In this document: piece by piece, positions 1 through 39,362 of the stretch
How positions within the stretch are numbered: the stretch's first letter is position 1
Layout of the letters: every line of letters starts with the position of its first letter
Source: a virus
Taxonomy: Duplodnaviria; Caudoviricetes
Length of the DNA stretch: 39,362 nt
Direction: 5' to 3' (one strand)
IMG/VR virus record: IMGVR_UViG_3300037851_000044
Location: 1-39,362 of that record
The notes under the pieces: generated by a model
What the model was told of the DNA's origin: nothing
Seen by the model: the letters and a program-made list of their open reading frames with translations, nothing else
The model's database searches: none
Translations under genes and position numbers: made by a program

Positions 1-103
1 GGCCGTGTCCAGTCGATCCGTCGGCGTGTCATCCGCCGCCATTTCAGGCGACACGGGTGACGATAGCTTCAGTAGCGCGTGCTTAAGATTGAGGGTTCTA
101 ACG
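1..103 (+). repeat. Terminal overlap, identical to 39160-39262 (circular assembly)
   Basis: Direct match ggccgtgtcc...ggttctaacg at both ends, offset 39159. Confidence 0.95.
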
Positions 104-182
104 TGGAGTTCAGCGGCGTGCCCGCTGTCTGTTCGAGTAACCACCCTGCTGGCGGCACGTCCGCTGGAACGCAGGGTTAGGC
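96..182 (-). repeat. attC site 1 (87 bp)
   Basis: Minus strand: GCCTAAC-CCTGC-GTTCCAGC-GGACGTGCC...GGCACGCC-GCTGAAC-TCCAC-GTTAGAA; R''/L''/L'/R' boxes with extra C and A in the left arm. Confidence 0.92.
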
Positions 183-203
183 GTTTTCGCATAAGGAGGC
201 AGT

Positions 204-407
204 ATGTCTGCAAGATGGTACGTGGTTCGCGTTGACGAAGAAAAGCTTCAGATCTTTAAGGCGGCAAAGAAGCCAGTGTTCGAGCCGGTTCGCGGAAACT
301 GGCCACGGGAGTGCAACGTCAACGGGGATGACGGAGAAGACGCGGTTTACGCGGGTGGCTTTTTGACTGGCACGATGCGGCTAAACGTCGGATTTGAAGA
401 CGCCTAA
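204..407 (+). CDS. Cassette 1 hypothetical protein (67 aa)
   Basis: AAGGAGG RBS upstream; TAA stop lies inside the next site (GCCTAAC). Confidence 0.75.
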   Translation: MSARWYVVRVDEEKLQIFKAAKKPVFEPVRGNWPRECNVNGDDGEDAVYAGGFLTGTMRLNVGFEDA

Positions 408-420
408 CGTAGAGTTGGGG
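402..420 (-). repeat. Collapsed att site (two R-like boxes with a 5-bp spacer)
   Basis: GCCTAAC-GTAGA-GTTGGGG; each side complements the far end of the adjoining cassette. Confidence 0.65.
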
Positions 421-427
421 GTGCGGA

Positions 428-703
428 ATGAAGGTGGCGAACAAAGGGACGGGGAATAGGTATGCCCGCGATCTTGGCGGGAACCACATAGAAGCCATCC
501 GTTCCACAGCGACAAGCAACGGGGTTTTCATCGCATTCGGAAAAAGATTCTGCGAGACATGTCAGACGCTGAAACCGAAAGACTCAACGCCAGCAAAAAA
601 GGGGTGGAAGTGCAAGGACTGCAAAACTAAGACCCACAACGCAAAAGTTGAGGCCGACGGCGCGGGCATTATCGCGACGGTCGCGCCTCGAACGACGGGT
701 TAG
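428..703 (+). CDS. Cassette 2 zinc-ribbon-like protein, reads through attC2
   Basis: CETC...CKDC motif pair; stop TAG falls in the GTTAG box of attC2. Confidence 0.65.
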   Translation: MKVANKGTGNRYARDLGGNHIEAIRSTATSNGVFIAFGKRFCETCQTLKPKDSTPAKKGWKCKDCKTKTHNAKVEADGAGIIATVAPRTTG

Positions 704-705
704 CC
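634..705 (-). repeat. attC site 2 (72 bp)
   Basis: Minus strand: GGCTAAC-CCGTC-GTTCGAGG...CCTCAAC-TTTTGC-GTTGTGG. Confidence 0.9.
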
Positions 706-749
706 CTCAACGGAAACCTACTACAACTGACTCTCAAAGGAGCATAACG

Positions 750-1097
750 ATGGAACAACAGCACACCCTGATGAAGTTCGACCCGGCTACAGGGGAGCCG
801 AAGCCCTACCCGAGCCACGCCGGCCAGTGGCGCGTTTGGCACGGGAAGATGACGGCGTGGCTTTTCAACCCGTGGACTGGAACACGCCGCGATGCTGGCG
901 ATGTTGGAAGCGACACGTTTGGACAGTTGATCCTTCCGCCCGGGGAGCCGCTGTATGCAGCCACGGAGAAAGCAGCGCCACTGCAAGAGGTTGAGGCTCG
1001 CTACAAGGACTTGCTGCAACGGCTTGGCGTGCATGGACACGAAGGCGCGGTGGCTGAGATTTCCAAGCTGCGCGAGGTTAGAGGTCTTGATGGCTAA
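750..1097 (+). CDS. Cassette 3 phage-type hypothetical protein (115 aa)
   Basis: AAGGAG RBS at 737-742, ATG at 750; Trp-rich YPSHAGQWR...WLFNPWTG segment; TAA inside GGCTAAC. Confidence 0.8.
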   Translation: MEQQHTLMKFDPATGEPKPYPSHAGQWRVWHGKMTAWLFNPWTGTRRDAGDVGSDTFGQLILPPGEPLYAATEKAAPLQEVEARYKDLLQRLGVHGHEGAVAEISKLREVRGLDG

Positions 1098-1150
1098 CGC
1101 TCCGCATGAGCGCGCGAGCGAAGCGAGTCCGCTCGATGCGGTTGTTCGGC
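1092..1150 (-). repeat. attC site 3 (59 bp)
   Basis: Minus strand: GCCGAAC-AACCG-CATCGAGC...GCTCATG-CGGAGC-GTTAGCC. Confidence 0.9.
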
Positions 1151-1169
1151 GTCACTGTTTGGAGGATTG

Positions 1170-1637
1170 ATGAGCATACCGTATGAAACCGCCACAAGTG
1201 GCGATAAGGCGCTGCTGGAATTGCAGCGCACCCTGGCGAAGTTCGGTTGCCAAAGTTTCGGCACAATGACGGACGCCGAGAAAGGCGAAACCATCGTGCA
1301 GTTTCGGTGGCGCAATCGGGACGTGTCGCTGCGAGCCTCTTGGAAGGGCTACGCGGCGGCGTGGCTGAAAGACCACCCTTACAGCCACAGGATGCGCTGC
1401 AATCGAGCGCAGCACGACCAAGCCGCGCTGAAACAAGCGCAGACCAGCGTGTGCAGCGTTCTTCGGGATTGGGTAAAGGGCCAGGTGACTGCCGTTGAGT
1501 GTGGAATCATGAGTTTCGAGGCGGCATTTATGCCGCACATGCTGCTCTCGACGGGCGAGCGCGTGATTGACCGGATACATGCGCAGGGGATGCTGCCCGC
1601 GCCAGACGCCGGTAATGTTGTGGAGATGCGGAAGTGA
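1170..1637 (+). CDS. Cassette 4 phage-type hypothetical protein (155 aa)
   Basis: GGAGG RBS at 1161-1165; fills the interval between attC3 and attC4. Confidence 0.85.
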   Translation: MSIPYETATSGDKALLELQRTLAKFGCQSFGTMTDAEKGETIVQFRWRNRDVSLRASWKGYAAAWLKDHPYSHRMRCNRAQHDQAALKQAQTSVCSVLRDWVKGQVTAVECGIMSFEAAFMPHMLLSTGERVIDRIHAQGMLPAPDAGNVVEMRK

Positions 1638-1638
1638 C

Positions 1639-1707
1639 GCCGAACGCAGAGGTAAGCGGGACGGCGAAGCGCAGCTTCGACGGCTCCGCTTGACCGACTG
1701 GTTATGC
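1639..1707 (-). repeat. attC site 4 (69 bp)
   Basis: Minus strand: GCATAAC-CAGTC-GGTCAAGC-GGAGCCG...CCGCTTACC-TCTGC-GTTCGGC. Confidence 0.92.
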
Positions 1708-1724
1708 CTCGCGACGCGACCACG

Positions 1725-2183
1725 ATGAAACTGCGGATCGTACCCACGGACCTGAAAACGGCGAACGAGTTTGTGCGCCGGCTGCACCGGCACAGCCGCC
1801 CGGTGGTTGGGCACCGCTTCGCGGTCGGCGTGGCTGACGAGGCCGGCACGCTGCGCGGGGTTGCGATTGTGGGCAGGCCGGTAGCGCCGCGCCTGGACAA
1901 CGGTTTCGCGGCCGAGATTACCCGGCTGTGCACGGACGGCACGCGGAACGCCTGCTCGATGTTGTACGGAGCGGCGCGGCGGGCAGCGCGTGCGATGGGC
2001 ATGGCGCCGATTTACACCTACACCCTGCCGGACGAAGGCGGGGCCAGCTTGCGGGCCGCTGGATTCCGACTCGACAAAGAGGACGCGGGCGGTAGCGCCG
2101 CGATGTGGCACAACCGGCCCGGCAGGACCGCGCAGCCCGTTGGCGACGATCTCGTCGGCGGAAAGTGGCGGTGGGTTGGGTGA
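1725..2183 (+). CDS. Cassette 5 XF1762-family protein (possible Mom-like GNAT DNA-modifying enzyme); alternative start at 1704
   Basis: ANEFV..LHRH, GVAIVGRPVA, EITRLCTDGTRNACSMLYGAA, TYTL..EGGASLRAAG motifs. Confidence 0.75.
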   Translation: MKLRIVPTDLKTANEFVRRLHRHSRPVVGHRFAVGVADEAGTLRGVAIVGRPVAPRLDNGFAAEITRLCTDGTRNACSMLYGAARRAARAMGMAPIYTYTLPDEGGASLRAAGFRLDKEDAGGSAAMWHNRPGRTAQPVGDDLVGGKWRWVG

Positions 2184-2184
2184 G

Positions 2185-2260
2185 GCATAACGCACAAATA
2201 AGGGGCGGCTGACGGCGGCTTTATCGCCGGCAGGCGTCCCTCTTGATTGACGGGTTATGC
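2185..2260 (-). repeat. attC site 5 (76 bp)
   Basis: Minus strand: GCATAAC-CCGTC-AATCAAGA-GGGACGCC...GCCCCTTATT-TGTGC-GTTATGC. Confidence 0.9.
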
Positions 2261-2302
2261 CGCGCTACCCACAAAGCGCGGCACACGACAAAGGAATAGA
2301 AC

Positions 2303-2542
2303 ATGAGCAAAGGCAACCTGCAACAAGTGATGGTGCGGATTAAGGGTTCTGATGTCAGCAGCCCGATTGCTGTTTTTCGCTGCGACCAGCCGGAAATGCT
2401 GGATGCCGTTTTCGCGGCAACCGTGAAGACGCAGCAGATGATTGAGCTACGGCACCCGGACTTGATCGGAGTCTACGACGGCACCATGAATCTGGATCAG
2501 GTGTTGCAGGAGTTGGCCGGCCATGTGCGCTATGCGGCATAA
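2303..2542 (+). CDS. Cassette 6 hypothetical protein (79 aa)
   Basis: AAGGA RBS; TAA inside GCATAAC of the terminal site. Confidence 0.8.
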   Translation: MSKGNLQQVMVRIKGSDVSSPIAVFRCDQPEMLDAVFAATVKTQQMIELRHPDLIGVYDGTMNLDQVLQELAGHVRYAA

Positions 2543-2580
2543 CGTGATTTATCTCGGTGATCTGCCGGATAACATAGCTC
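2537..2580 (-). other. Candidate attI-like primary recombination site
   Basis: Minus strand TGTTATCCGGCAGATCACCGAGATAAATCACGTTATGC: GTTRRRY-type core at the head of the array with no paired R'' box. Confidence 0.55.
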
Positions 2581-2636
2581 GACCTGACGTAAACGATGCC
2601 ACGCAAAACAAATGAGCCGCTTCAATAATTTCCTGT

Positions 2637-2801
2637 TTGACCGCATGGACGCTCCGGTACTGGATCAACGGCTGGCTGAAGGAAGGAAAGCGCGGGAAGT
2701 TCCTGTCGCTGTCGTTCAAGCCGAAGACGGCAAAGGCTCCCGACGTGATGCCGAAGGTCAATGCTGGCGTGGCTGATATGGACTCGGATGTTCCTTTTTG
2801 A
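2637..2801 (+). pseudogene. 3' fragment of a small phage ssDNA-binding protein (DUF736-like)
   Basis: Translates YWINGWLKEGKRGKFLSLSFKPK...DMDSDVPF*, with an SSB-type acidic PF tail; in-frame TGA at 2613-2615 and no ATG upstream of the conserved block. Confidence 0.65.
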
Positions 2802-2803
2802 CC

Positions 2804-2902
2804 ATGACCACTAACACCGATGAATTGCGGGCCGAAGTCAAGCGGCTTAAGACAGGAGGTTGTGCGCGCGATCAAAGGCTGACGCAGAGAAGCGATGACT
2901 AA
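2804..2902 (+). CDS. Short ORF or gene fragment (32 aa)
   Basis: MTTNTDELRAEVKRLKTGGCARDQRLTQRSDD; packed tightly between neighbours. Confidence 0.4.
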   Translation: MTTNTDELRAEVKRLKTGGCARDQRLTQRSDD

Positions 2903-3677
2903 CTTGGAAAAAGTGATTGCTCTGCTCGATGGGTTGATCGAGTCTGATCTAGACAGAGCGGAACGATTTATTGAGTCTCGTCTTACTCGCATTGACCTAC
3001 TAAAGCGGCAAGCCGCCCGAGCAGCGCCAGCGCAGCGCAATCTAACCGTGCCGGAAGAAAAGGCGATTGACGCCGCGTTGTTCTCCGGATCAAAGCTGGT
3101 AGGAGTCGAGTTTAGGGACGGCGCAATTAGAGCAGCGCCAGCGCAGCCAGTCACGCACACGGTTGCTACCGCGCCGAAGCGAATCTATCTAAACGTCTTT
3201 GAGCACCTCGAGGACGATCTTGGATTCCCCGACGACCATGAGGGCATTACATGGTGCGAGGACAAGATAGGTGACAACGACATCCCGTACGTCCGCGCCG
3301 ACTTAGCAGGGGCAGCGCCAGCGCAGGCAGAGCTGCCAACTGCACTATCGCAGTTCAACAAGTTTTGGAGCGACGAAGATGACGGCAGCGATCCGGTCGA
3401 ACGCCTGCGTGCATTCTGTTCGTTCGCCATGAAAGGGCAGGACTGGCTGGACGTTGAACCGTTCTTCGATGCGCTGACTGCTGCGCGCGACCTGACCGCA
3501 TGGCGAGCCGAGGCGATGAGGCTTGGAAGGATAGAGCACTACTACTGCGAGGACTCATGGTACTCATGCCCCCAAGCGGAGGGCGGTTGCTCCGATGAAG
3601 CATGGGGGACGGAATGTACCTGTGGAGCGGACTCGCACAACGCCGCCCTCGCCGCGCATTTGGAGAAGTTGAAATGA
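2895..3677 (+). CDS. Modular phage early protein with AAPAQ linkers (260 aa)
   Basis: Three in-frame GCAGCGCCAGCGCAG repeats; Cys/His-rich C-terminus; ATGA coupling to the next gene. Confidence 0.75.
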   Translation: MTNLEKVIALLDGLIESDLDRAERFIESRLTRIDLLKRQAARAAPAQRNLTVPEEKAIDAALFSGSKLVGVEFRDGAIRAAPAQPVTHTVATAPKRIYLNVFEHLEDDLGFPDDHEGITWCEDKIGDNDIPYVRADLAGAAPAQAELPTALSQFNKFWSDEDDGSDPVERLRAFCSFAMKGQDWLDVEPFFDALTAARDLTAWRAEAMRLGRIEHYYCEDSWYSCPQAEGGCSDEAWGTECTCGADSHNAALAAHLEKLK

Positions 3678-17214: not shown

Positions 17215-18786
17215 TTAGGCCGCCGCTTTCAGTTTTCCTTCGATCCATTGAACCGCCCAATTGCAGACCGTTTCCGGGTCCGCCGCTTCCTGACACGCCG
17301 CCGCGCCGGTTTTGCCGCGGTGACAATGTGACCAGTCGGCGTGTATCCGGTGACACGGGTAACAAGGAAGGTTGCTAGGTTCGACGGCGATGCACGGCGA
17401 CCAGTCGCGCGTCAGTTGTTCGGCGGTCGAATGCGACAGCAGAACGATTTTTAAGGGCGGTTCATGCGCGACCGAATTCACGATCGCACTTTCCGTCCCG
17501 ATGACAACGTCCGCCAGCGCGGCGAACGTGAAGCACTGCCGGATTGTCCATTGCGTCCCGACGATTGTTGACCGCGGCGTCGGGCGCAGCTTCGACATAC
17601 GCAAGTCTCCCAAAACGACGGTATGGATGCCGCGCGCCTCGAGGATTTCGATCGCGCGCTGCGTATGCGGCCAGAACTTCGGAAGGCTGGACCCGGTCGG
17701 GTTAATCACGACGACCGGACCGTCGCGCTTCGCGCGTTCCGCCTTCGCGAATTCGATTTCTTCTTTCGTCGGCGTGAACTTGATCCGCACCTTTTCGCGA
17801 TCGAAGTCGACGCCTGCCCAATGGTAGACGTTTTCGACGTAGTTTTTCCGCATGACCCGGCGCCGCGTTTCATCTGGCAGCCAGAAATTAGGGTCGATCG
17901 GATGCGGCAACAAAGTTCGTTCGACCGACCCGACGAGGTTCACGAACCTGTCGAACTTGCTTTCGGCCCATTGCCAGTAAGCCGACTGCAATCGCGAAGT
18001 GTCCGGCCCGCCCATTCCGAATATGCCGTCAGGCTGTACGCGCATTTCGTCGATATTCGGATCGTTTCCTAAGCTTGCCTGGCCTTCCTTTTGCGTAAAT
18101 AGCGTGACGTGCCATCCCTCCCGCTTGTATGCCTCGAGGATCGGCGTAATCCACAACGCATCACCGTATGCGCCCAGGCGGACAAGCCCGAGCGTTTTTT
18201 CGGGTTTCGGTTTCGGTTCGACGACGACCGTCTGCGCGTCGCTGCGCTTGCGGTAGATTTGAAGGAACGAGTATTCGAACGCTTCGGTTCGGACTTCGTC
18301 GCGTTCTAGATCCCACCCTTGCCCGCAGGATTCGGCGACTTCGCGCATCGCTTCGACAATGTCGGCGTTGCGGAAGTCGTGACGGTGATCCGGGTTCGCG
18401 CCAGGCATCCCCACATTCGGATAATGATCGGCGTGCGGGATGTACAAAATCAACCGACCGCCGGGACGAATGACGCGCCACCAGTCGCGCAGCGATGCGC
18501 GGTAGTCGTCGATATGCTCGAGCAAGTGCGACGAAAAGACGACGTCGATTTCGCCGTCGGCGAACAGCGTCAGCTTGTCGCATGACGCCTCGATCCGCTG
18601 ATTCGCCTTCGCGCCGAACAAGCGTAAATCTTTGTCGTTATCCATGCCGATGACGTGCGGCGCCCCGGCGAACGCGGGCATCGGCCCGCATCCTAGATCC
18701 AGGCATCGCCCGTGCATCAAATGGGCGATTTCGAACATTACTTTATGGGATTCCGCGCCCTGCGGTCCGTCACTTCTCCAAACCAT
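17215..18786 (-). CDS. Fusion of SAM methyltransferase and GT9 (heptosyltransferase-like) glycosyltransferase
   Basis: LDLGCG, VFSSHLLEH, WWRVIRPGGRL; then VRLGAYGD, INP.GS...KFWP, ADVVIGTESA. Confidence 0.85.
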   Translation of the reverse strand: MVWRSDGPQGAESHKVMFEIAHLMHGRCLDLGCGPMPAFAGAPHVIGMDNDKDLRLFGAKANQRIEASCDKLTLFADGEIDVVFSSHLLEHIDDYRASLRDWWRVIRPGGRLILYIPHADHYPNVGMPGANPDHRHDFRNADIVEAMREVAESCGQGWDLERDEVRTEAFEYSFLQIYRKRSDAQTVVVEPKPKPEKTLGLVRLGAYGDALWITPILEAYKREGWHVTLFTQKEGQASLGNDPNIDEMRVQPDGIFGMGGPDTSRLQSAYWQWAESKFDRFVNLVGSVERTLLPHPIDPNFWLPDETRRRVMRKNYVENVYHWAGVDFDREKVRIKFTPTKEEIEFAKAERAKRDGPVVVINPTGSSLPKFWPHTQRAIEILEARGIHTVVLGDLRMSKLRPTPRSTIVGTQWTIRQCFTFAALADVVIGTESAIVNSVAHEPPLKIVLLSHSTAEQLTRDWSPCIAVEPSNLPCYPCHRIHADWSHCHRGKTGAAACQEAADPETVCNWAVQWIEGKLKAAA

Positions 18787-22610: not shown

Positions 22611-23187
22611 GACCGTCAAACCTCACATAAGAAAACCGCGGATCGGCCATGCCGCGCGCGATCGCGTCTTTGCGGATTTCCCGCGCCCGTTCGGTTTGCC
22701 AGTGCCGCAACAGATCCCGAATGCCCTGGGACGTAGTGAACTTCATCCGGCGCCCGGCGATTTCGTATTCGGCGATCGTGCCATTCGACGCCGTATAACT
22801 GGCAAGCGCCACGTTCAGGTCGTCGATTGCTTTCTGCGCCAGCGTCCGCCCGTCGAAACCCGCGACCGCCGTCCGCGGGTTTTGCAGGATGACCAGTTGC
22901 GAAAACGCCGGTTCGACGGTGTAAACCTCCGCGCCCTTTTCGACCCAGGCGGCGACCGAATAGTCGCCCGGCGACCAGTCGTCCGTAACGGTCGCGGCGG
23001 CGGCGACGCGATACTGCGTGCCTTCCGTCGTCGCCGTCAGATCGATGACGCTTGCAGTTCCGTCGCGCGGGATCAGTCGATATTTGAGCGTCCATCCGTC
23101 GCCCGGATAGTAAGCCCCGTCGGCGCCCGTCGGCGCATCCTGCAAGTAGGACAGCGTGTCGCCTGCAACCAGTTTTTGCGAAATCAT
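22600..23187 (-). CDS. Head completion protein (gpW-like C-terminus)
   Basis: AGDT..., EYEIAGRRMK motifs; directly upstream of portal. Confidence 0.65.
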   Translation of the reverse strand: MISQKLVAGDTLSYLQDAPTGADGAYYPGDGWTLKYRLIPRDGTASVIDLTATTEGTQYRVAAAATVTDDWSPGDYSVAAWVEKGAEVYTVEPAFSQLVILQNPRTAVAGFDGRTLAQKAIDDLNVALASYTASNGTIAEYEIAGRRMKFTTSQGIRDLLRHWQTERAREIRKDAIARGMADPRFSYVRFDGHGS

Positions 23188-25583
23188 CCAAGGTTCCCCA
23201 AGTTGCCGTCGACGACCTTTCCGCCGTCTCCGCCCGCGATACTGCGTTCCGGAACCGACAGCGTCCCATCCCCAAAGCGCCCAGGTACGACGCCCATAGC
23301 CGCCGAACCGATGCGCCGCGGACCCTGCCTCGTGATATCCGACAGCGACCAAACCGTGCCGACTGCCGTTCCGGCGGGCGTGATTGTCCGCGAACTTTGT
23401 CCGATGCGCGGCGTGGCGCCGGCGACCGCTTCCGACGACCCGGCGGCGACTACTGCGGCGGTCGACGTGCCGCGGATCGCGATCTGTCCCGCGCCAGCCG
23501 CGGCGGGAATGACCGCAACCGCCGACGCGCCTAGAACGTCGACCTTGCCGGTGGCGGCGCCCGCCGGGGTGATCGCCCTCGAGCTTGACCCAAAAATCCC
23601 GGCATAGCCTACGGACCCGGTCGAATCACGCCCGACGTCGACCGCGACGCCTGACGTCCCGCGGATTGCGACCGTACCGGCGGCGGCGCCCGACGACGAT
23701 ACTTCGGCGGAACTTGTCCCGACTACCGGCGTCGCGCCGACCGTTCCGGACGCGGCGGCCGCCGCGGTCACTGCCGCCGCGCTGGCGCCCGCGATCGCAA
23801 CCGTTCCCGCCGCCGATCCCGCCGGGACCACCGACGCCTGCGACGTCGCTCGAACGTCTACAGTGCCGCTGGCGGCGCCGGCGGGCGCGACCGTATAGGC
23901 ACTAGTGCCGGTCAGCGGCGACGCGCCCACGACGCCGGACGACGTCGCCGCGGGCAGAATTTGTGCCGACGAAACCCCGGCGACAGCAACGGCGCCCGCC
24001 GCCGCGCCCGCTGCCGTGACTGCAGCCGAGCTTGTGCCTACAACCGGCGTCGCGCCGACAGTGCCGGACGCATTGCCCGCCGGGACAATGCTCGAGGCGG
24101 ACGCGCCGCGGACTTCGACGGTTCCGGCAGCGGAACCCGCCGGCGCGAACGCGGCGGAACTTGTCCCGACTACCGGCGTCGCGCCGACCGTTCCGCTTGC
24201 GGTGCCGGCTGGCGTAACAGATAGCGACGACGTGCCGCGGACTTCGACAGTCGCGCGGCTATCCCAAAAGACATAGACGCTAAGGTCGCACTGGATTGAC
24301 CTTATTTCGACTGTACCGCCGGCGGTGCCAGCGGGGGTAATCGCGGCGGCGCTTGTGCCGGTTACGGGCGACGCGCCGACCGTCCCGGCAGACGTCCCGG
24401 AAGGAACTACGGCGCCCGTCGACGCGCCGCGGACTTCGACCTGTCCCGCCGCCGAGCCGACTGGCGTAACGGTTACGCCGGACGTTCCGGAAATCGACGC
24501 CTGTCCGCGTCCGAACGACCCGCCGCGACGCGACGCGATCCCTAGCGGCGTCAGCCTTGAATATGGCCCGATTTGCCGCGCCGACGCTTCCGGCGTGCCT
24601 GACGAATTCCCGGCGACGATGACCTGAACAGTCGACGCTCCGGAAATTTCGGCGAACGCCGCCGAACCTACCGCGGCGCCGGACGGAATGACGCCGACCG
24701 ACGAATTTGCGGCGATCGCGACCGTTCCGTTCGCCTGCCCCGCCGGATCGATTCCGACCGCCGACGTGCCTGATGCCGGACCGTTTTCAACGGTTCCAGC
24801 CGCCGCGCCGCCGGGCGTAACGGTGCCGGTCGAAATAAGCGACCGGTCCCGAATGATGACGATTCCGAACGGCCCGCGGACGTTCGTCGTCGTGCCGCCG
24901 ACGGTCGCCGACAGGACCGTTTTTGACGTGCCGGATGTTGCGCCGCTGCTGATCGGCGCGCGACCGATCAGTCCGCCGATATCGTTCCCGGTCGACGAAT
25001 CCGGTTCGTACATTTCGACGAACGAACCGAACGTGACGCCGCTACAGGACAGCGATTCGGCGGAAAACTGCGACGGCGTCGTGACGTCCGTCGGGATCGC
25101 GAACACGGCGAACGCCAGGTCGCCCGGTGCGATCGCCAGGTTATCGGTTGCCGTCCCGGCGAACGCCGTTCCGGGGTTTGCCGTCTGCTGCCCGAACGCC
25201 GCCAGGAATTCCCAGTCGGTAAGCGCGCCGCGGTCCGAATCGACCCGGACCATATGCGCCCACGCGACGTTATTCGTCGCGATCGTGACGGTTAGCGACC
25301 CTGATTCCGTGCCGACTGCGGACCGACCGTAAACCCAAAGGTTCATGTTGCCGGAATCGGCGCCAAGCGTCGTGCCATAGCCGCCGCACGCCAGGGCCGA
25401 ACCGACGGCAGTCCACCCGGACGGCGCCGTAATGCCGCCCCCGTTCGCGGTCGACGGTTTCATGGCGACGTAAAGCAACAGCCCGTCGCCGGCGTCTATG
25501 CCGCCAGGATACGCAGGGGCGACAGTTGTTCCGCCGCTGGCGCTATACGCTACCGCTGTCGCGGTCCCGTAGGTAATCGCCAT
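23184..25583 (-). CDS. Ala/Gly/Ser/Thr/Val-rich repetitive putative virion protein (799 aa)
   Basis: Globular N-terminus then alternating short repeats of the type GTSS...PAG.A.GTV. Confidence 0.75.
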   Translation of the reverse strand: MAITYGTATAVAYSASGGTTVAPAYPGGIDAGDGLLLYVAMKPSTANGGGITAPSGWTAVGSALACGGYGTTLGADSGNMNLWVYGRSAVGTESGSLTVTIATNNVAWAHMVRVDSDRGALTDWEFLAAFGQQTANPGTAFAGTATDNLAIAPGDLAFAVFAIPTDVTTPSQFSAESLSCSGVTFGSFVEMYEPDSSTGNDIGGLIGRAPISSGATSGTSKTVLSATVGGTTTNVRGPFGIVIIRDRSLISTGTVTPGGAAAGTVENGPASGTSAVGIDPAGQANGTVAIAANSSVGVIPSGAAVGSAAFAEISGASTVQVIVAGNSSGTPEASARQIGPYSRLTPLGIASRRGGSFGRGQASISGTSGVTVTPVGSAAGQVEVRGASTGAVVPSGTSAGTVGASPVTGTSAAAITPAGTAGGTVEIRSIQCDLSVYVFWDSRATVEVRGTSSLSVTPAGTASGTVGATPVVGTSSAAFAPAGSAAGTVEVRGASASSIVPAGNASGTVGATPVVGTSSAAVTAAGAAAGAVAVAGVSSAQILPAATSSGVVGASPLTGTSAYTVAPAGAASGTVDVRATSQASVVPAGSAAGTVAIAGASAAAVTAAAAASGTVGATPVVGTSSAEVSSSGAAAGTVAIRGTSGVAVDVGRDSTGSVGYAGIFGSSSRAITPAGAATGKVDVLGASAVAVIPAAAGAGQIAIRGTSTAAVVAAGSSEAVAGATPRIGQSSRTITPAGTAVGTVWSLSDITRQGPRRIGSAAMGVVPGRFGDGTLSVPERSIAGGDGGKVVDGNLGNLG

Positions 25584-31802: not shown

Positions 31803-32369
31803 CTATAGGGTAGCCCTATCGATTGCCTGCTGATCCAATCGACGGAAGCTATTAGCTTCGAACCGCACCAGTGCCCGCCCATCCTTGAGGATGCGGACAT
31901 GATCGCCGAAGAATTCGTCGACTGCCATTCGGCATCCTGGCAACGGATCGTAGTCATCGAACAGGATTGCGCCGCCCGGAATCATCCTGGGCGCGAACGT
32001 GCGGCAGATTTCGAACGTCGTTTCGTATTGATCGGCATCGGCATGGACGAACGCGACCGGACCTGTTTCGATGAACGAATCCGGGAAGATACCGGGAACG
32101 ATGACCGCATCCGGGCAGAGCGACCTGACCAGTTCGACCGATGTATCGGCGAAGTCCCCGACGCGATGAACGTCGAATTTGCCTGATACTGGCATCCCGC
32201 TGAACGTATCGAACAGGTAAAGCTTTCTGCCCTGCGCTCGAGCCACGTCCAGCAAGTGAACCGCGGTCCCGCCCTGATACACGCCGACTTCGACCATAGC
32301 GCCGCCAGCGGGACACGACGCGGCGATTGCGACCATAGTCGCCGTCATCGGTTCGTTTACGATCCGCAT
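31803..32369 (-). CDS. TylF/MycF-family O-methyltransferase
   Basis: VEVGVYQGG, LFDTFSGMP, G.F.DS, FVHADADQYE, GG.ILFDDY, AVDEFF. Confidence 0.85.
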   Translation of the reverse strand: MRIVNEPMTATMVAIAASCPAGGAMVEVGVYQGGTAVHLLDVARAQGRKLYLFDTFSGMPVSGKFDVHRVGDFADTSVELVRSLCPDAVIVPGIFPDSFIETGPVAFVHADADQYETTFEICRTFAPRMIPGGAILFDDYDPLPGCRMAVDEFFGDHVRILKDGRALVRFEANSFRRLDQQAIDRATL

Positions 32370-35524: not shown

Positions 35525-36043
35525 TCATGTTCGCAATGCCCGCCGCACCTTGTCGCGGCTGATGTTCAGTTCCGCCTGGATTTCGTCAAAGGACTTTCCC
35601 TCCGCCCGCAGCCGCTTCACGGGCCCCGCAAGATGCGCGACAGATTCCTTCCTGAATGTCGGACGCAAGGGCCCGCGCCCTGGAAACGTATGCCCCGCCA
35701 AAAGCGCCCGGACATACCTCCTGCTGATGACAAGCTCCGCCGCAATCTCGCGCTGCGTCCAGCCCGATTCGGCAAACTCAATGGCCCTGCGCCTGAGTTT
35801 GTCCACTTCCGATTCATTGCGCCGCCCGCCATCCTCGAGTTGCGCGCCATTGCCGAGAAGATTCTCGCGCCAGTAAAAGGCCGATCTTGGCTCCATCAAG
35901 CCACCCTCCGCAGCCTGACCGACTTCAATAGTTCGCGTACCCGTTCCTTTTCTTCCTCTGTCGGCGGCCCCTTCGCTTCCTTGGCAGCTTCGATCTCCTG
36001 CCGCTTCTGCATATTGGCGATCGAGGATGTCATCAGGGTTCAT
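35525..36043 (-). CDS. Tandem HTH DNA-binding protein (alternative start 35896)
   Basis: GWTQREIAAELVISRRYV and GKSFDEIQAELNISRDKVRR. Confidence 0.7.
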   Translation of the reverse strand: MNPDDILDRQYAEAAGDRSCQGSEGAADRGRKGTGTRTIEVGQAAEGGLMEPRSAFYWRENLLGNGAQLEDGGRRNESEVDKLRRRAIEFAESGWTQREIAAELVISRRYVRALLAGHTFPGRGPLRPTFRKESVAHLAGPVKRLRAEGKSFDEIQAELNISRDKVRRALRT

Positions 36044-36921
36044 GCGGATTCCTCACCGAACAAATCAGACTGAACAGCGGCGGCCCTTATATTGAGAACC
36101 GCTTGATCATAGTAGCTCGATTTAAGCTCTATCCCTATAAACCTACGTCCCATCTCAACTGCAACATGGCCTTCACTTGCGATCCCGGCAAAGGGAGATA
36201 ACACGGTGTCATTTGGATTTGTCCACAGATCAATTCCGCGACGGATAACCTCCAACTGCAATGGGCAGATGTGCCGCTCATCATCATCCTCGCGCGCGCT
36301 ACGAAATTGCAACGTGTCGCCTGGATCAATGTCTGTCCAGATCGGAGAAGCTATCTTCTGCCACTTGCTTACCGGATACTCTTCTCCGTGTAACACGCGA
36401 TCCACAATCTCACCAGGCGCGCGCATCGTGACAAGGTAGTCAGGAATACCTTGTCTGCTCATCGTTGCATTTCCTCGAACGGTTTTGTGCAACAGACCTA
36501 GTGCCTTAGTGCGCTGCATTGCCATTACCGGGTCTTTCCAGATACATACTTCGCTGGCATAGATAAACCCGCGCTTCTGAAACGCGCGGATCAGATCGCC
36601 GCGGAAGTCACTCAGCCCGACATAGCCGTCACGCTCTTTGCTGGTTGGCAGCAACATGCAATGAAACGAGACGTTATGTCCCGGCTTCATCACGCGCAAG
36701 AGTTGCGCTACCAAGAAATCGAAGTGCTCGAAAAATTCCGCATGGTCACGGCAATTGCCCATGTCTCTTGGGCTATTGCTGTAGGTATACAAGCTGGCGA
36801 ACGGTGGAGAAAAAATCGAATAATCAATACTTCTCTCCGGCAATCCCTCCATCACCTCTACGCAATCTCCGTGATACATCGCCCACCTATCCGTCACCTC
36901 CTGTCGAATACAATTCATCAT
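36040..36921 (-). CDS. DNA methyltransferase, N4/N6 family, beta class
   Basis: SIFSPPF motif IV precedes VLSPFAGI.SEG motif I; H.CPLQ; GIELK. Confidence 0.9.
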   Translation of the reverse strand: MMNCIRQEVTDRWAMYHGDCVEVMEGLPERSIDYSIFSPPFASLYTYSNSPRDMGNCRDHAEFFEHFDFLVAQLLRVMKPGHNVSFHCMLLPTSKERDGYVGLSDFRGDLIRAFQKRGFIYASEVCIWKDPVMAMQRTKALGLLHKTVRGNATMSRQGIPDYLVTMRAPGEIVDRVLHGEEYPVSKWQKIASPIWTDIDPGDTLQFRSAREDDDERHICPLQLEVIRRGIDLWTNPNDTVLSPFAGIASEGHVAVEMGRRFIGIELKSSYYDQAVLNIRAAAVQSDLFGEESA

Positions 36922-38297
36922 TCCCCCTTCAGCCATGCTGGATGTTGTACTTCGTCGCTAGCGTGATACGGATTCACGGATCGTTCCAATCCAAAAACCT
37001 CAGATCTCACGGCATCCGCCGTCTCGGCAGAAAGAGCATCTGCCATTAGCCGTGAGTCGCGCTCCTTTCTGCGTAGATTGGCCACAACAGATCCCTCCAA
37101 TTCGGAAGCGAAAATATGGACCTTCACTTCTCGCGGTTGCCCGAAACGCCAGCACCTGCGTACTGCCTGATAGTAACTTTCAAATGAGTCAGTGACTCCG
37201 ACAAATGCCATATGTGCGCAGTGCTGCCAATTCAATCCGAATCCAGCAATGCTTGGCTTTGTCACTAGCACCCTGATCTTTCCTGCAGCAAAATCAAGAA
37301 GCGCGCGTTCCTTGTATTCCGCATCATGGGAGCCTCGTATCTCCACAGAGTCAGGGATAGCCTCAATCAACGCGTCGCTTTCAGCATTTAGGTCGCACCA
37401 GACAATCCACGGTTCTGGCGTCTCGTTGACTATTGAAGCGCATTCTTCTACTCGACCTTCTAGAGACGCCTTGCGCGCCAGCCTACGCTCCGAGAGAGTC
37501 TGCGCCTCGAGCGCAAACAACATTCCTTCGCTGCTTTGATGGGTCTTGATGGTATGTTCGATTACGCTGAGAGGCGGGATGTCATAGAGTGAATCGTCAT
37601 ATCCAAGGTCAGAAGGCCGTCGAACCAAGGCCCCCCACGATGACACCCACCGCCAGAATTGATGCCTGGCGTGCCGCTTGATGCGCCATACATTAGTTTC
37701 CCCGCCGTCGTGCATGAAAAACTCTGCCAGCATTTCGGATCTAGTACAAACTCCAAGGAATTCCGCGTGCGTCCCTAGTTCTGTCCAGTCGTTCGGCGCC
37801 GGCGTGGCGGTAGCACATAACTTGAACTGAACATCCCGGAACCGTGCCGTCAAATCTGCGAATGTCTTTGCGTCGTGGTGCTTAATGATGCTTGACTCAT
37901 CGAGCACAACAGCTCCAAATTCAGAGGTGTTGAACTTGTGAATTCGCTCGTAGTTCGTGATGTTGATTCCTGGGCATATTTCCAATGACGATCTAGCATG
38001 TGTAACTTCAATGCCAATGGCTTTGCCCTCGTTCGTCGTTTGTTCTGCTACTGCTAGGGGCGCGAGAATCAGAACCGATTTACCGGTAGATTTGTATACC
38101 GCATTGGCCCACGTCAACTGCATTCTCGTCTTGCCCAATCCGGTATCGGCGAAGATAGCGCAACGCCCGCGCCTCAGTGCCCATATAACCAGAGCCTCCT
38201 GATGGGGAAACATTCCGGCATGAACATGGGACGTATTGGTCAATCCCGTTGGCGGTATCAGACTTAACTTGCGATCAATGAGATCCGCATAGCTCAT
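36918..38297 (-). CDS. SF2 (SNF2/DEAD-like) helicase
   Basis: ADTGLGKT, LDESS, TATPAPN, GFGLNWQ, QAVRRCWRFGQ. Confidence 0.9.
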   Translation of the reverse strand: MSYADLIDRKLSLIPPTGLTNTSHVHAGMFPHQEALVIWALRRGRCAIFADTGLGKTRMQLTWANAVYKSTGKSVLILAPLAVAEQTTNEGKAIGIEVTHARSSLEICPGINITNYERIHKFNTSEFGAVVLDESSIIKHHDAKTFADLTARFRDVQFKLCATATPAPNDWTELGTHAEFLGVCTRSEMLAEFFMHDGGETNVWRIKRHARHQFWRWVSSWGALVRRPSDLGYDDSLYDIPPLSVIEHTIKTHQSSEGMLFALEAQTLSERRLARKASLEGRVEECASIVNETPEPWIVWCDLNAESDALIEAIPDSVEIRGSHDAEYKERALLDFAAGKIRVLVTKPSIAGFGLNWQHCAHMAFVGVTDSFESYYQAVRRCWRFGQPREVKVHIFASELEGSVVANLRRKERDSRLMADALSAETADAVRSEVFGLERSVNPYHASDEVQHPAWLKGE

Positions 38298-38575: not shown

Positions 38576-38815
38576 TTACCGTTCGGTAGCCGGTGACCCC
38601 CGGTCGCGTTCGTATGCGTCGACGCTGGCGCGGTCGATCCATACCGTCCGGCCCGCGCGCCATCCGCGAATGTGGCCCCTTGCCAGCAAGTCGTCGACCT
38701 TTTGCCGACGCACGCCCAGGCGGACCATTACTTCGCCCGGCGTCAATACGTTCCGGATCTGGATCGCCGAACCGACCGCACGCAGCATCGCGCGGATATC
38801 TTCGAAGGTTTGCAT
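38576..38815 (-). CDS. HTH DNA-binding protein (excisionase/Cro-like)
   Basis: LTPGEV..RLGV.R..V..L...G.I.G.R.GR...I....V..Y. Confidence 0.75.
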   Translation of the reverse strand: MQTFEDIRAMLRAVGSAIQIRNVLTPGEVMVRLGVRRQKVDDLLARGHIRGWRAGRTVWIDRASVDAYERDRGSPATER

Positions 38816-38844
38816 TCAAGCCCCCGCTGGTTGATAACGCCGCC

Positions 38845-38920
38845 ATTATGCCATAGTTTAACGGGATAAAAACCCGTTACGGATCAACGCCGTACAAAGT
38901 CCCGTTTTTTGTGATATAGT
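38845..38920. promoter_or_regulatory. Divergent promoter region with central inverted repeat
   Basis: Extended -10 candidates TGGCATAAT (- strand, 38853-38845) and TGATATAGT (+ strand, 38912-38920); TAACGGG-N7-CCCGTTA at 38859-38879. Confidence 0.5.
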
Positions 38921-39035
38921 GCAATTGTTTCGGGACGGTCCGGAATTCGATGAACGATTACCTAGCCCGGCATGGACAGTGGCGCCAAACGGCGCCCAGC
39001 GGGTGGTATGCAAACCGGAAGCAAGGGAAAACGAA

Positions 39036-39245
39036 ATGACGCGAAACCTTGCAGTGATGCTGTTCGCCGCCGCCCTGGCGGCGTGCGGTGGCGGAATCGA
39101 CGACGAACAGTTCATCGGCCCGCCGTACGTCGAGGATACCGCGCCGGTCGCAGCGCCGAGGCCGTGTCCAGTCGATCCGTCGGCGTGTCATCCGCCGCCA
39201 TTTCAGGCGACACGGGTGACGATAGCTTCAGTAGCGCGTGCTTAA
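39036..39245 (+). CDS. Small lipoprotein (69 aa)
   Basis: Signal peptide with LAAC lipobox; Pro-rich mature part. Confidence 0.7.
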   Translation: MTRNLAVMLFAAALAACGGGIDDEQFIGPPYVEDTAPVAAPRPCPVDPSACHPPPFQATRVTIASVARA

Positions 39246-39254
39246 GATTGAGGG

Positions 39255-39326
39255 TTCTAACGCAAAAGTTGAGGCCGACGGCGCGGGCATTATCGCGACG
39301 GTCGCGCCTCGAACGACGGGTTAGCC
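39255..39326 (-). repeat. Hybrid attC (R' flank of site 1 joined to the body of site 2)
   Basis: 39160-39262 equals 1-103 and 39259-39362 equals 638-741; only AACG is shared at the junction. Confidence 0.9.
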
Positions 39327-39362
39327 CTCAACGGAAACCTACTACAACTGACTCTCAAAGGA

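Follow-up and report, generated by a model that had tools for sequence, protein, structure and literature searches.

The DNA analysed here (the window) is the whole of a virus record, a contig of 39,362 bases that is classed as 'linear' with a completeness of 64. Matches to PHROG families among its 49 proteins include terminase, portal, capsid, tail and endolysin proteins, a helicase, methyltransferases and RecE-like and RecT-like proteins. Given this set, and because a 103-nt repeat closes the sequence into a circle, the genome of this tailed freshwater phage is probably complete. Six small genes with integron-type sites between them lie at its start, and the end of the contig carries a second version of the first part of this array (Table 1). 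The gene just upstream of the array encodes a product that we read as lipoprotein-like. A search of all six frames for tyrosine recombinases with PF00589 and TIGR02249 returned 0 candidates.

Table 1. Sites, genes and junction features of the cassette array and the contig end (positions in the window)
Feature	Position	Strand	Basis or remark
69-aa gene spanning the circle join, immediately before the array	39036..39245	+	Continuous frame
Second copy of 1-103, circle-closing (genome 39,159 bp)	39160..39262	+	100% over 103 nt
Second copy of 642-741	39263..39362	+	100%
Short-allele crossover core AACG, cut predicted at AA|C	39259..39262	+	Common to 100-103 and 638-641; joint 99->638 in run X1
Hybrid attC site, site 1 left box with site 3 hairpin	39255..39326	+	Fold and box pairing
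538-bp segment missing from the short allele	102..639	+	Bounds from predicted cut; registers 100-637 to 104-641 all fit
attC site 1	96..182	+ (predicted bottom strand)	Extra G and T on 3' arm; z -2.3
Cassette 1 gene, 67 aa, no family	204..407	+	Outer boxes GTTAGGC/GCCTAAC pair 7/7
Site 2, left box GCCTAACG intact, hairpin decayed	402..530	+	No attC fold, z +1.6 versus shuffles
Cassette 2 frame, 91 aa, two CxxC pairs, through site 3; start uncertain	428..703	+	Pfam C1_1 below cut-off only
attC site 3	634..705	+	Hairpin, z -1.8
Cassette 3 gene, 115 aa, no family	750..1097	+	Boxes pair 7/7
attC site 4, begins AACGCT, candidate third-branch site	1092..1150	+	Hairpin, z -1.7
Cassette 4 gene, phrog_17260, unknown function	1170..1637	+	Boxes pair 7/7
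attC site 5	1639..1707	+	Hairpin, z -4.0
Cassette 5 gene, Mom-like / XF1762 family DNA modification protein	1725..2183	+	Relatives align AAC to AAC
attC site 6; X1 record starts where a post-AACG branch would start it	2185..2260	+	z -6.5
Cassette 6 gene, 79 aa, no family	2303..2542	+	Boxes pair 7/7
Site 7, left box and short hairpin remnant, array end	2537..2600	+	z -0.2

The array has seven left boxes, all within the first 2.6 kb; their AAC stands at 100, 406, 638, 1096, 1643, 2189 and 2541. Five of them (sites 1, 3, 4, 5 and 6, within 96-2260) open a hairpin that is closed by GTT; all five hairpins start with AACG and, on the + strand, each carries an unpaired extra G in its 3' arm. The folds of sites 3 and 4 are only modestly better than those of shuffled sequences (z -1.8 and -1.7), and sites 2 and 7 lack the attC hairpin, defined by R'/R'' boxes and an AAC/GTT core, and fold no better than shuffles. 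A strict detector found four attC-type sites with extra G, paired L boxes and unpaired central spacer, against a mean of 0.35 in 20 shuffles, and a looser one found the five sites plus four further hits on the circle (2667, 12926, 14817 and 20280), all on the + strand. When run as a control on 20 chromosomal integron regions, the looser detector placed 43 sites on the strand that intI predicts and one on the opposite strand. In the available text on bacterial sites, the extra G picks the bottom strand that is recombined, recombination takes place in the R' box, and a G usually comes after the AAC of that box (Bouvier 2009, PMC2727003); the cut is given as G|TTRRRY in the corresponding part of Qi 2023 (PMC9892861). 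Because the extra G is on the 3' arm, these cut rules predict that the + strand of the window is the recombined bottom strand and that it is cut at the left AA|C.

According to the available description of IntegronFinder 2.0, a CALIN is a group of at least two attC sites that lacks an integron integrase in its vicinity. Judged from its sequence, the array is by definition such a CALIN, integron-like and without a platform of its own, with five intact sites and no TIGR02249 or PF00589 match, and is not a complete integron, as no intI is present in cis. Site 1, at the start of the array, is a full hairpin, not attI; for Pc, no sigma-70-like site was found in 38700-39362. Rfam gave zero matches in 1-3000.

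All six genes lie on the bottom strand, backward compared with the usual top-strand orientation of classic cassettes. Among the chromosomal integrons sampled, 17 of 21 units were classic by a longest-ORF test, a crude test that scored the window's own 538-bp unit as classic. The boxes flanking the genes are fully complementary (7/7) in five of the six cassettes (1, 3, 4, 5 and 6), and no partner box was found for cassette 2.

The limits of the cassettes were examined in relatives. In one relative of cassette 5 (L032) the alignment covers 1643-2193, which takes it from an AAC as far as the AACG that follows; in another (L031) it starts at 1643, in five (L030, L049, L050, L056 and L058) it ends at 2192-2193 (L030, L049 and L050 at 2192), and one (L033) overshoots both unit ends. 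By these starts and ends, the cassette unit runs AAC to AAC. A relative of cassette 3 (L067) likewise lies between hairpins. At 26 viral loci with the cassette 5 gene, the strict detector found an upstream site in 11 and four more were recognized by eye; detector hits at these loci, nested ones included, numbered 47 on the gene strand and 0 on the opposite strand. Among 26 relatives of the cassette 4 gene, 21 were inspected by eye and none had a hairpin at its flank; this gene family therefore lives mostly outside cassettes. The sole match to the cassette 1 protein, 15 residues long, was rejected, and GenBank phages gave only six short Mom-like matches. The motif of the upstream flank had 0 matches in metagenome and viral contigs, where near-identical records possibly lie outside the search and absence is not implied; the cassette 2 end motif had 0 matches in metagenome contigs, a search that near-identical records may likewise have escaped. 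Protein searches with RecE and with a frame near the right end, which is not the real gene there, retrieved zero loci.

Positions 39160-39262 of the window are identical to 1-103 (103 nt, 100%), and 39259-39362 are identical to 638-741 (104 nt, 100%). The initial annotation had described the contig end as a repeat of 1-103 that continues as 642-741 with 538 bp missing, and these matches bear it out to the base. The two alleles that it proposed, a long genome of 39,159 bp and a short one of 38,621 bp, follow from the same matches. The parental sites of the junction have only AACG in common (100-103 and 638-641), and inspection of the sequence supported the further claim that these four bases contain the IntI crossover position (G|TT on the minus strand); the exact crossover base is ambiguous over 4 nt within AACG, in both R' boxes. 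The skipped 538 bp holds two genes (204-407 and 428-703). The junction removes hairpin 1 together with both genes, keeps hairpin 3 whole and falls at the AAC box, not at the GTT end, a position that fits the predicted attC polarity, with its cut in the left AAC box. The hybrid site has a fold of -18.3 kcal/mol versus -16.1 for the parental site 3, and its outer boxes pair at 5/7 versus 3/7. The event had been labelled attC1 x attC2, which holds if intact hairpins are counted; three left boxes (100, 406 and 638) are involved, and counted by these the first is joined to the third. Because the flanks are identical over 103 and 104 nt, the junction shows an event that is recent on an evolutionary scale, which is not proof of activity today.

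The phage is present in two public runs from different studies, X1 and X2, both represented by contigs only. X1 may be the source sample, possibly with the same reads as the window contig, and its records are those of a k=31 assembly. In X1, the joint 99->638 lies in a 55-nt record with no mismatch and a depth of 7.98, and the adjoining flank record (715 nt, depth 16.1) ends at 103. The short allele thus has about half the depth of the flank (8 versus 16), depth being a rough measure, and because this second assembly holds the junction at such depth, assembler error is an unlikely source of it. The sides of the junction record, 25 and 30 letters, are under a 31-letter bridge standard; a k=31 record between two branch points cannot exceed the observed length. 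Its end at 667 demands a second path into site 3. It had been suggested beforehand that a lack of reads across TTCTAAC-GCAAAAG would point to an assembly artefact and that a repeat-driven misjoin was not at work; since the second assembly holds this very joint, at a depth of 7.98, both points come out in favour of the junction.

From the long allele, X2 has the stretches 122-272 and 356-506 at a depth of about 2, neither piece crossing site 1 or site 3, so cassettes 1 and 2 exist outside X1. The inside of the long allele had no record in the roughly 75% of X1 that was covered, with a filter applied, and the gaps at 104-637 and 668-2162 carry no evidential weight. In the roughly 75% of the X1 contigs covered there was no circle junction, and contigs drop rare forms; a circle would create four records, and as missing all of them has a P of about 0.004 if misses are independent, an abundant excised circle in X1 is unlikely. 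A common short allele also fits two co-existing lineages. Another X1 joint, 836->1353, was rejected as part of another organism's 19-kb record, in which 12,756 letters lie between the two sides.

The X1 records suggest more than two alleles. In simulations, two alleles alone predict a single junction record of 56 nt; in X1, the 55-nt record is accompanied by one of 31 nt, which covers 74-103 and one further letter at a depth of 10. Among 11 allele sets simulated, this split was reproduced only by those with a third branch after AACGC. Site 4, which begins AACGCT, fits as the origin of such a branch, and a foreign cassette would too. The circle junction and the combinations 1x5, 1x6, 6x3, 6x4 and 6x7 were rejected, as their simulated record ends are unlike those seen. 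A further X1 record of 407 nt spans 2163-2569; its start corresponds to a branch after the AACG of site 6 and its end to a merge at site 7, and the match of the record ends has a chance of about 0.5% per end. The region 2533-2573, which holds the site 7 remnant, is about 90% shared with contigs of other organisms in both runs, with different flanks, and this sharing may be the cause of the site 7 end. Because X1 records end at these points, we infer that the population holds a third branch and an alternative path to cassette 6 (slot 6), the branch records themselves not being among those seen. The layout of the window contig itself would follow from a bubble in the assembly graph: the second allele stands at the contig end because the assembler likely walked both arms, which would take it along the long arm, through the shared body and into the short arm. 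With k=103 a bubble arm would span 1..740 and so stop one base before the 741 that is observed; this k occurs in a published MEGAHIT k list, in the part available (PMC6646334).

Taken as a whole, these data make it probable that the contig end is a real second allele from which IntI excised a 538-bp two-gene unit, with the enzyme likely coming from the host or a co-resident prophage; a borrowed enzyme is likely because the phage encodes no integrase. By known integron chemistry, the + strand would fold at sites 1 and 3, four IntI subunits would exchange one strand at AA|C, and replication would resolve the junction, yielding a genome of 38,621 bp and a circle of 538 nt. Genes 1 and 2 would leave together as one unit, likely because the intervening site 2 has decayed. 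The odds that recombination is still going on are about even. The initial annotation had taken the alleles as the product of excision in an active or recently active array: the alleles and the join at the cut point are borne out, excision is the more probable direction over insertion, and the array may or may not be active at present. Beyond that annotation, the phage lacks an integrase, its cassette genes face backward relative to the sites, and more than two alleles probably exist.

The alternative that survives best, although it is unlikely, reverses the direction: the short allele would be ancestral, and a 538-nt two-gene circle would have been inserted at site 1 by the same site-specific chemistry. 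The junction carries no direction, its hybrid site pairs better than the parental site 3 (5/7 versus 3/7), the short allele is common, and integron arrays often grow at one end. Against insertion, the decay of site 2 suggests long residence, though a composite circle could bring a decayed site; the split into 31-nt and 55-nt records agrees with a further, nested deletion between sites 1 and 4; and the long allele is also found in X2, from another study. We give still less credence to a route without IntI, whether through another host tyrosine recombinase, through the phage's RecE/RecT acting on microhomology or through replication slippage at the hairpins. The phage does have RecE-like and RecT-like proteins and no IntI, and slippage can delete folded attC sites, as stated in the available part of Loot et al. 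(bioRxiv 10.1101/2022.09.11.507474). However, only four bases are shared, and joins between two cassette starts make up just 21 of the 3,526 AACG pairs (0.6%) within 2.5 kb on the circle. Slippage, moreover, should remove one hairpin, but here hairpin 3 remains whole and hairpin 1 is gone along with the two genes; the sites have the anatomy of IntI-type attC sites, and similar cassettes adjoin intI. A misjoin or a chimeric molecule from the library is the least credible explanation and a very improbable one, for although the junction lies at a contig end, X1 possibly stems from the same reads and the library method is unrecorded, the k=31 assembly has the joint with zero mismatch at a depth of about 8, the P that a deletion at random would end at two cut points is about 2e-7, and we know of no way for a de Bruijn assembler to bridge four shared bases without reads.

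Carriers of related cassettes bear on the possible source of the enzyme. The cassette 5 gene is present in five bacterial genomes, three betaproteobacterial and two actinobacterial. All three betaproteobacterial carriers have the gene behind a hairpin and encode IntI; the two actinobacterial carriers have neither hairpin nor IntI. With an IntI base rate of 47/121 in the carriers' order, 3/3 gives a P of about 0.06, which is not significant, and the enrichment of IntI among the carriers is weak. Two loci of one genome (G001), which tell more, bring IntI and such cassettes together. At the first (L056), a cassette 82% identical to cassette 5 at the nucleotide level belongs to an array beside intI (479 bits) and the chromosomal rarA. 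This locus (L056:1-3450) looks like a chromosomal integron in which all cassettes point toward intI, and its array has N gaps. The gene nearest intI points at intI and ends in AAC at the expected attI position; the attI and LexA-box labels that we give here are putative readings of the sequence. One cassette of this locus occurs twice around the N gaps, one of the copies taking the first position; shuffling or scaffolding may be the cause. The second locus (L096) is a prophage region with a repressor, a primase, backward cassettes, IntI, a second integrase and a head protease. Within it (L096:12400-16400, contig G001:C147), IntI (TIGR02249, 465 bits) sits at the end of the early operon, with the backward cassettes (one of them Mom-like) upstream and the second, phage-type integrase downstream. 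As both loci pair IntI with cassettes of this class, a host or a prophage could supply the enzyme.

Arrays of attC sites in phages are known from single genomes and an E. coli assay. Qi 2023 (PMC9892861) describes, in the text available, 17 phage CALINs and reports that IntI1 recombines 5/6 phage attC sites. The array studied here resembles those CALINs in its cluster of attC sites with small genes, in its occurrence in a phage without intI and in its DNA-modification cargo. The available part of that study covers single genomes and an attC x attI assay in E. coli, with no natural alleles, and describes two virulent phages as having the arrangement that is typical of arrays in bacteria, whereas the genes here are on the bottom strand. 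The proposed reaction is itself textbook integron recombination. As far as the accessible parts of Richard 2022 (PMC8946536) and Bouvier 2009 (PMC2727003) describe it, bacterial attC x attC excision likewise involves a folded bottom strand, an extra G on the R''-L'' arm and a cut in the R' box, and leaves a hybrid site. Unlike excision in bacterial integrons, the present case has no intI and no evident attI or Pc in cis, a phage as substrate and reversed genes. There is a further likeness to SALINs and attG insertion, which in the available text of Loot et al. (bioRxiv 10.1101/2022.09.11.507474) entail IntI acting in trans, cassettes away from the platform and later excision; those are single lab-made cassettes in bacterial chromosomes, in contrast to the six-unit array in a natural phage population described here.

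The present case shows a recombination product and its parental form together within a single population; the join lies where the cut is predicted, and the phage has no integrase. Natural recombination inside phages is untested in the literature that we found, and a literature search, which covered few subscription journals, turned up neither natural cassette alleles within phage populations nor backward cassettes in phages. The direction in which backward cassettes are cut is now settled, in that the hairpin goes with the downstream gene. If the case is general, host or prophage IntI would be one source of the mosaic early regions of phages. More tentatively, and with the balance slightly against it, a borrowed integrase may act as a live generator of diversity: the population would hold nested early-gene arrays (the full one, one minus cassettes 1-2 at about half depth, a third branch from site 1 and an alternative at slot 6), backward cassettes would be traded with host and prophage integrons, and the Mom-like DNA modifier and other accessory genes would switch in and out during infection.

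Several other features of the genome were noted. No integrase and no repressor match was found among the 49 proteins scanned, though the genes for replication and recombination resemble those of temperate phages. At 2812-2900, beyond the array, a short frame appears to be cut at about 2887, and contigs of both runs continue from it with other sequence; it is possibly a truncated copy of a common phage gene. A 799-aa protein without a PHROG family (23184-25583, - strand) has imperfect repeats of about 63-66 or 129 nt, and its gene sits between the portal and terminase regions. Besides the Mom-like cassette, three methyltransferase-like genes are present on the - strand (17215-18786, 31803-32369 and 36040-36936), one of which falls within the head-tail region.
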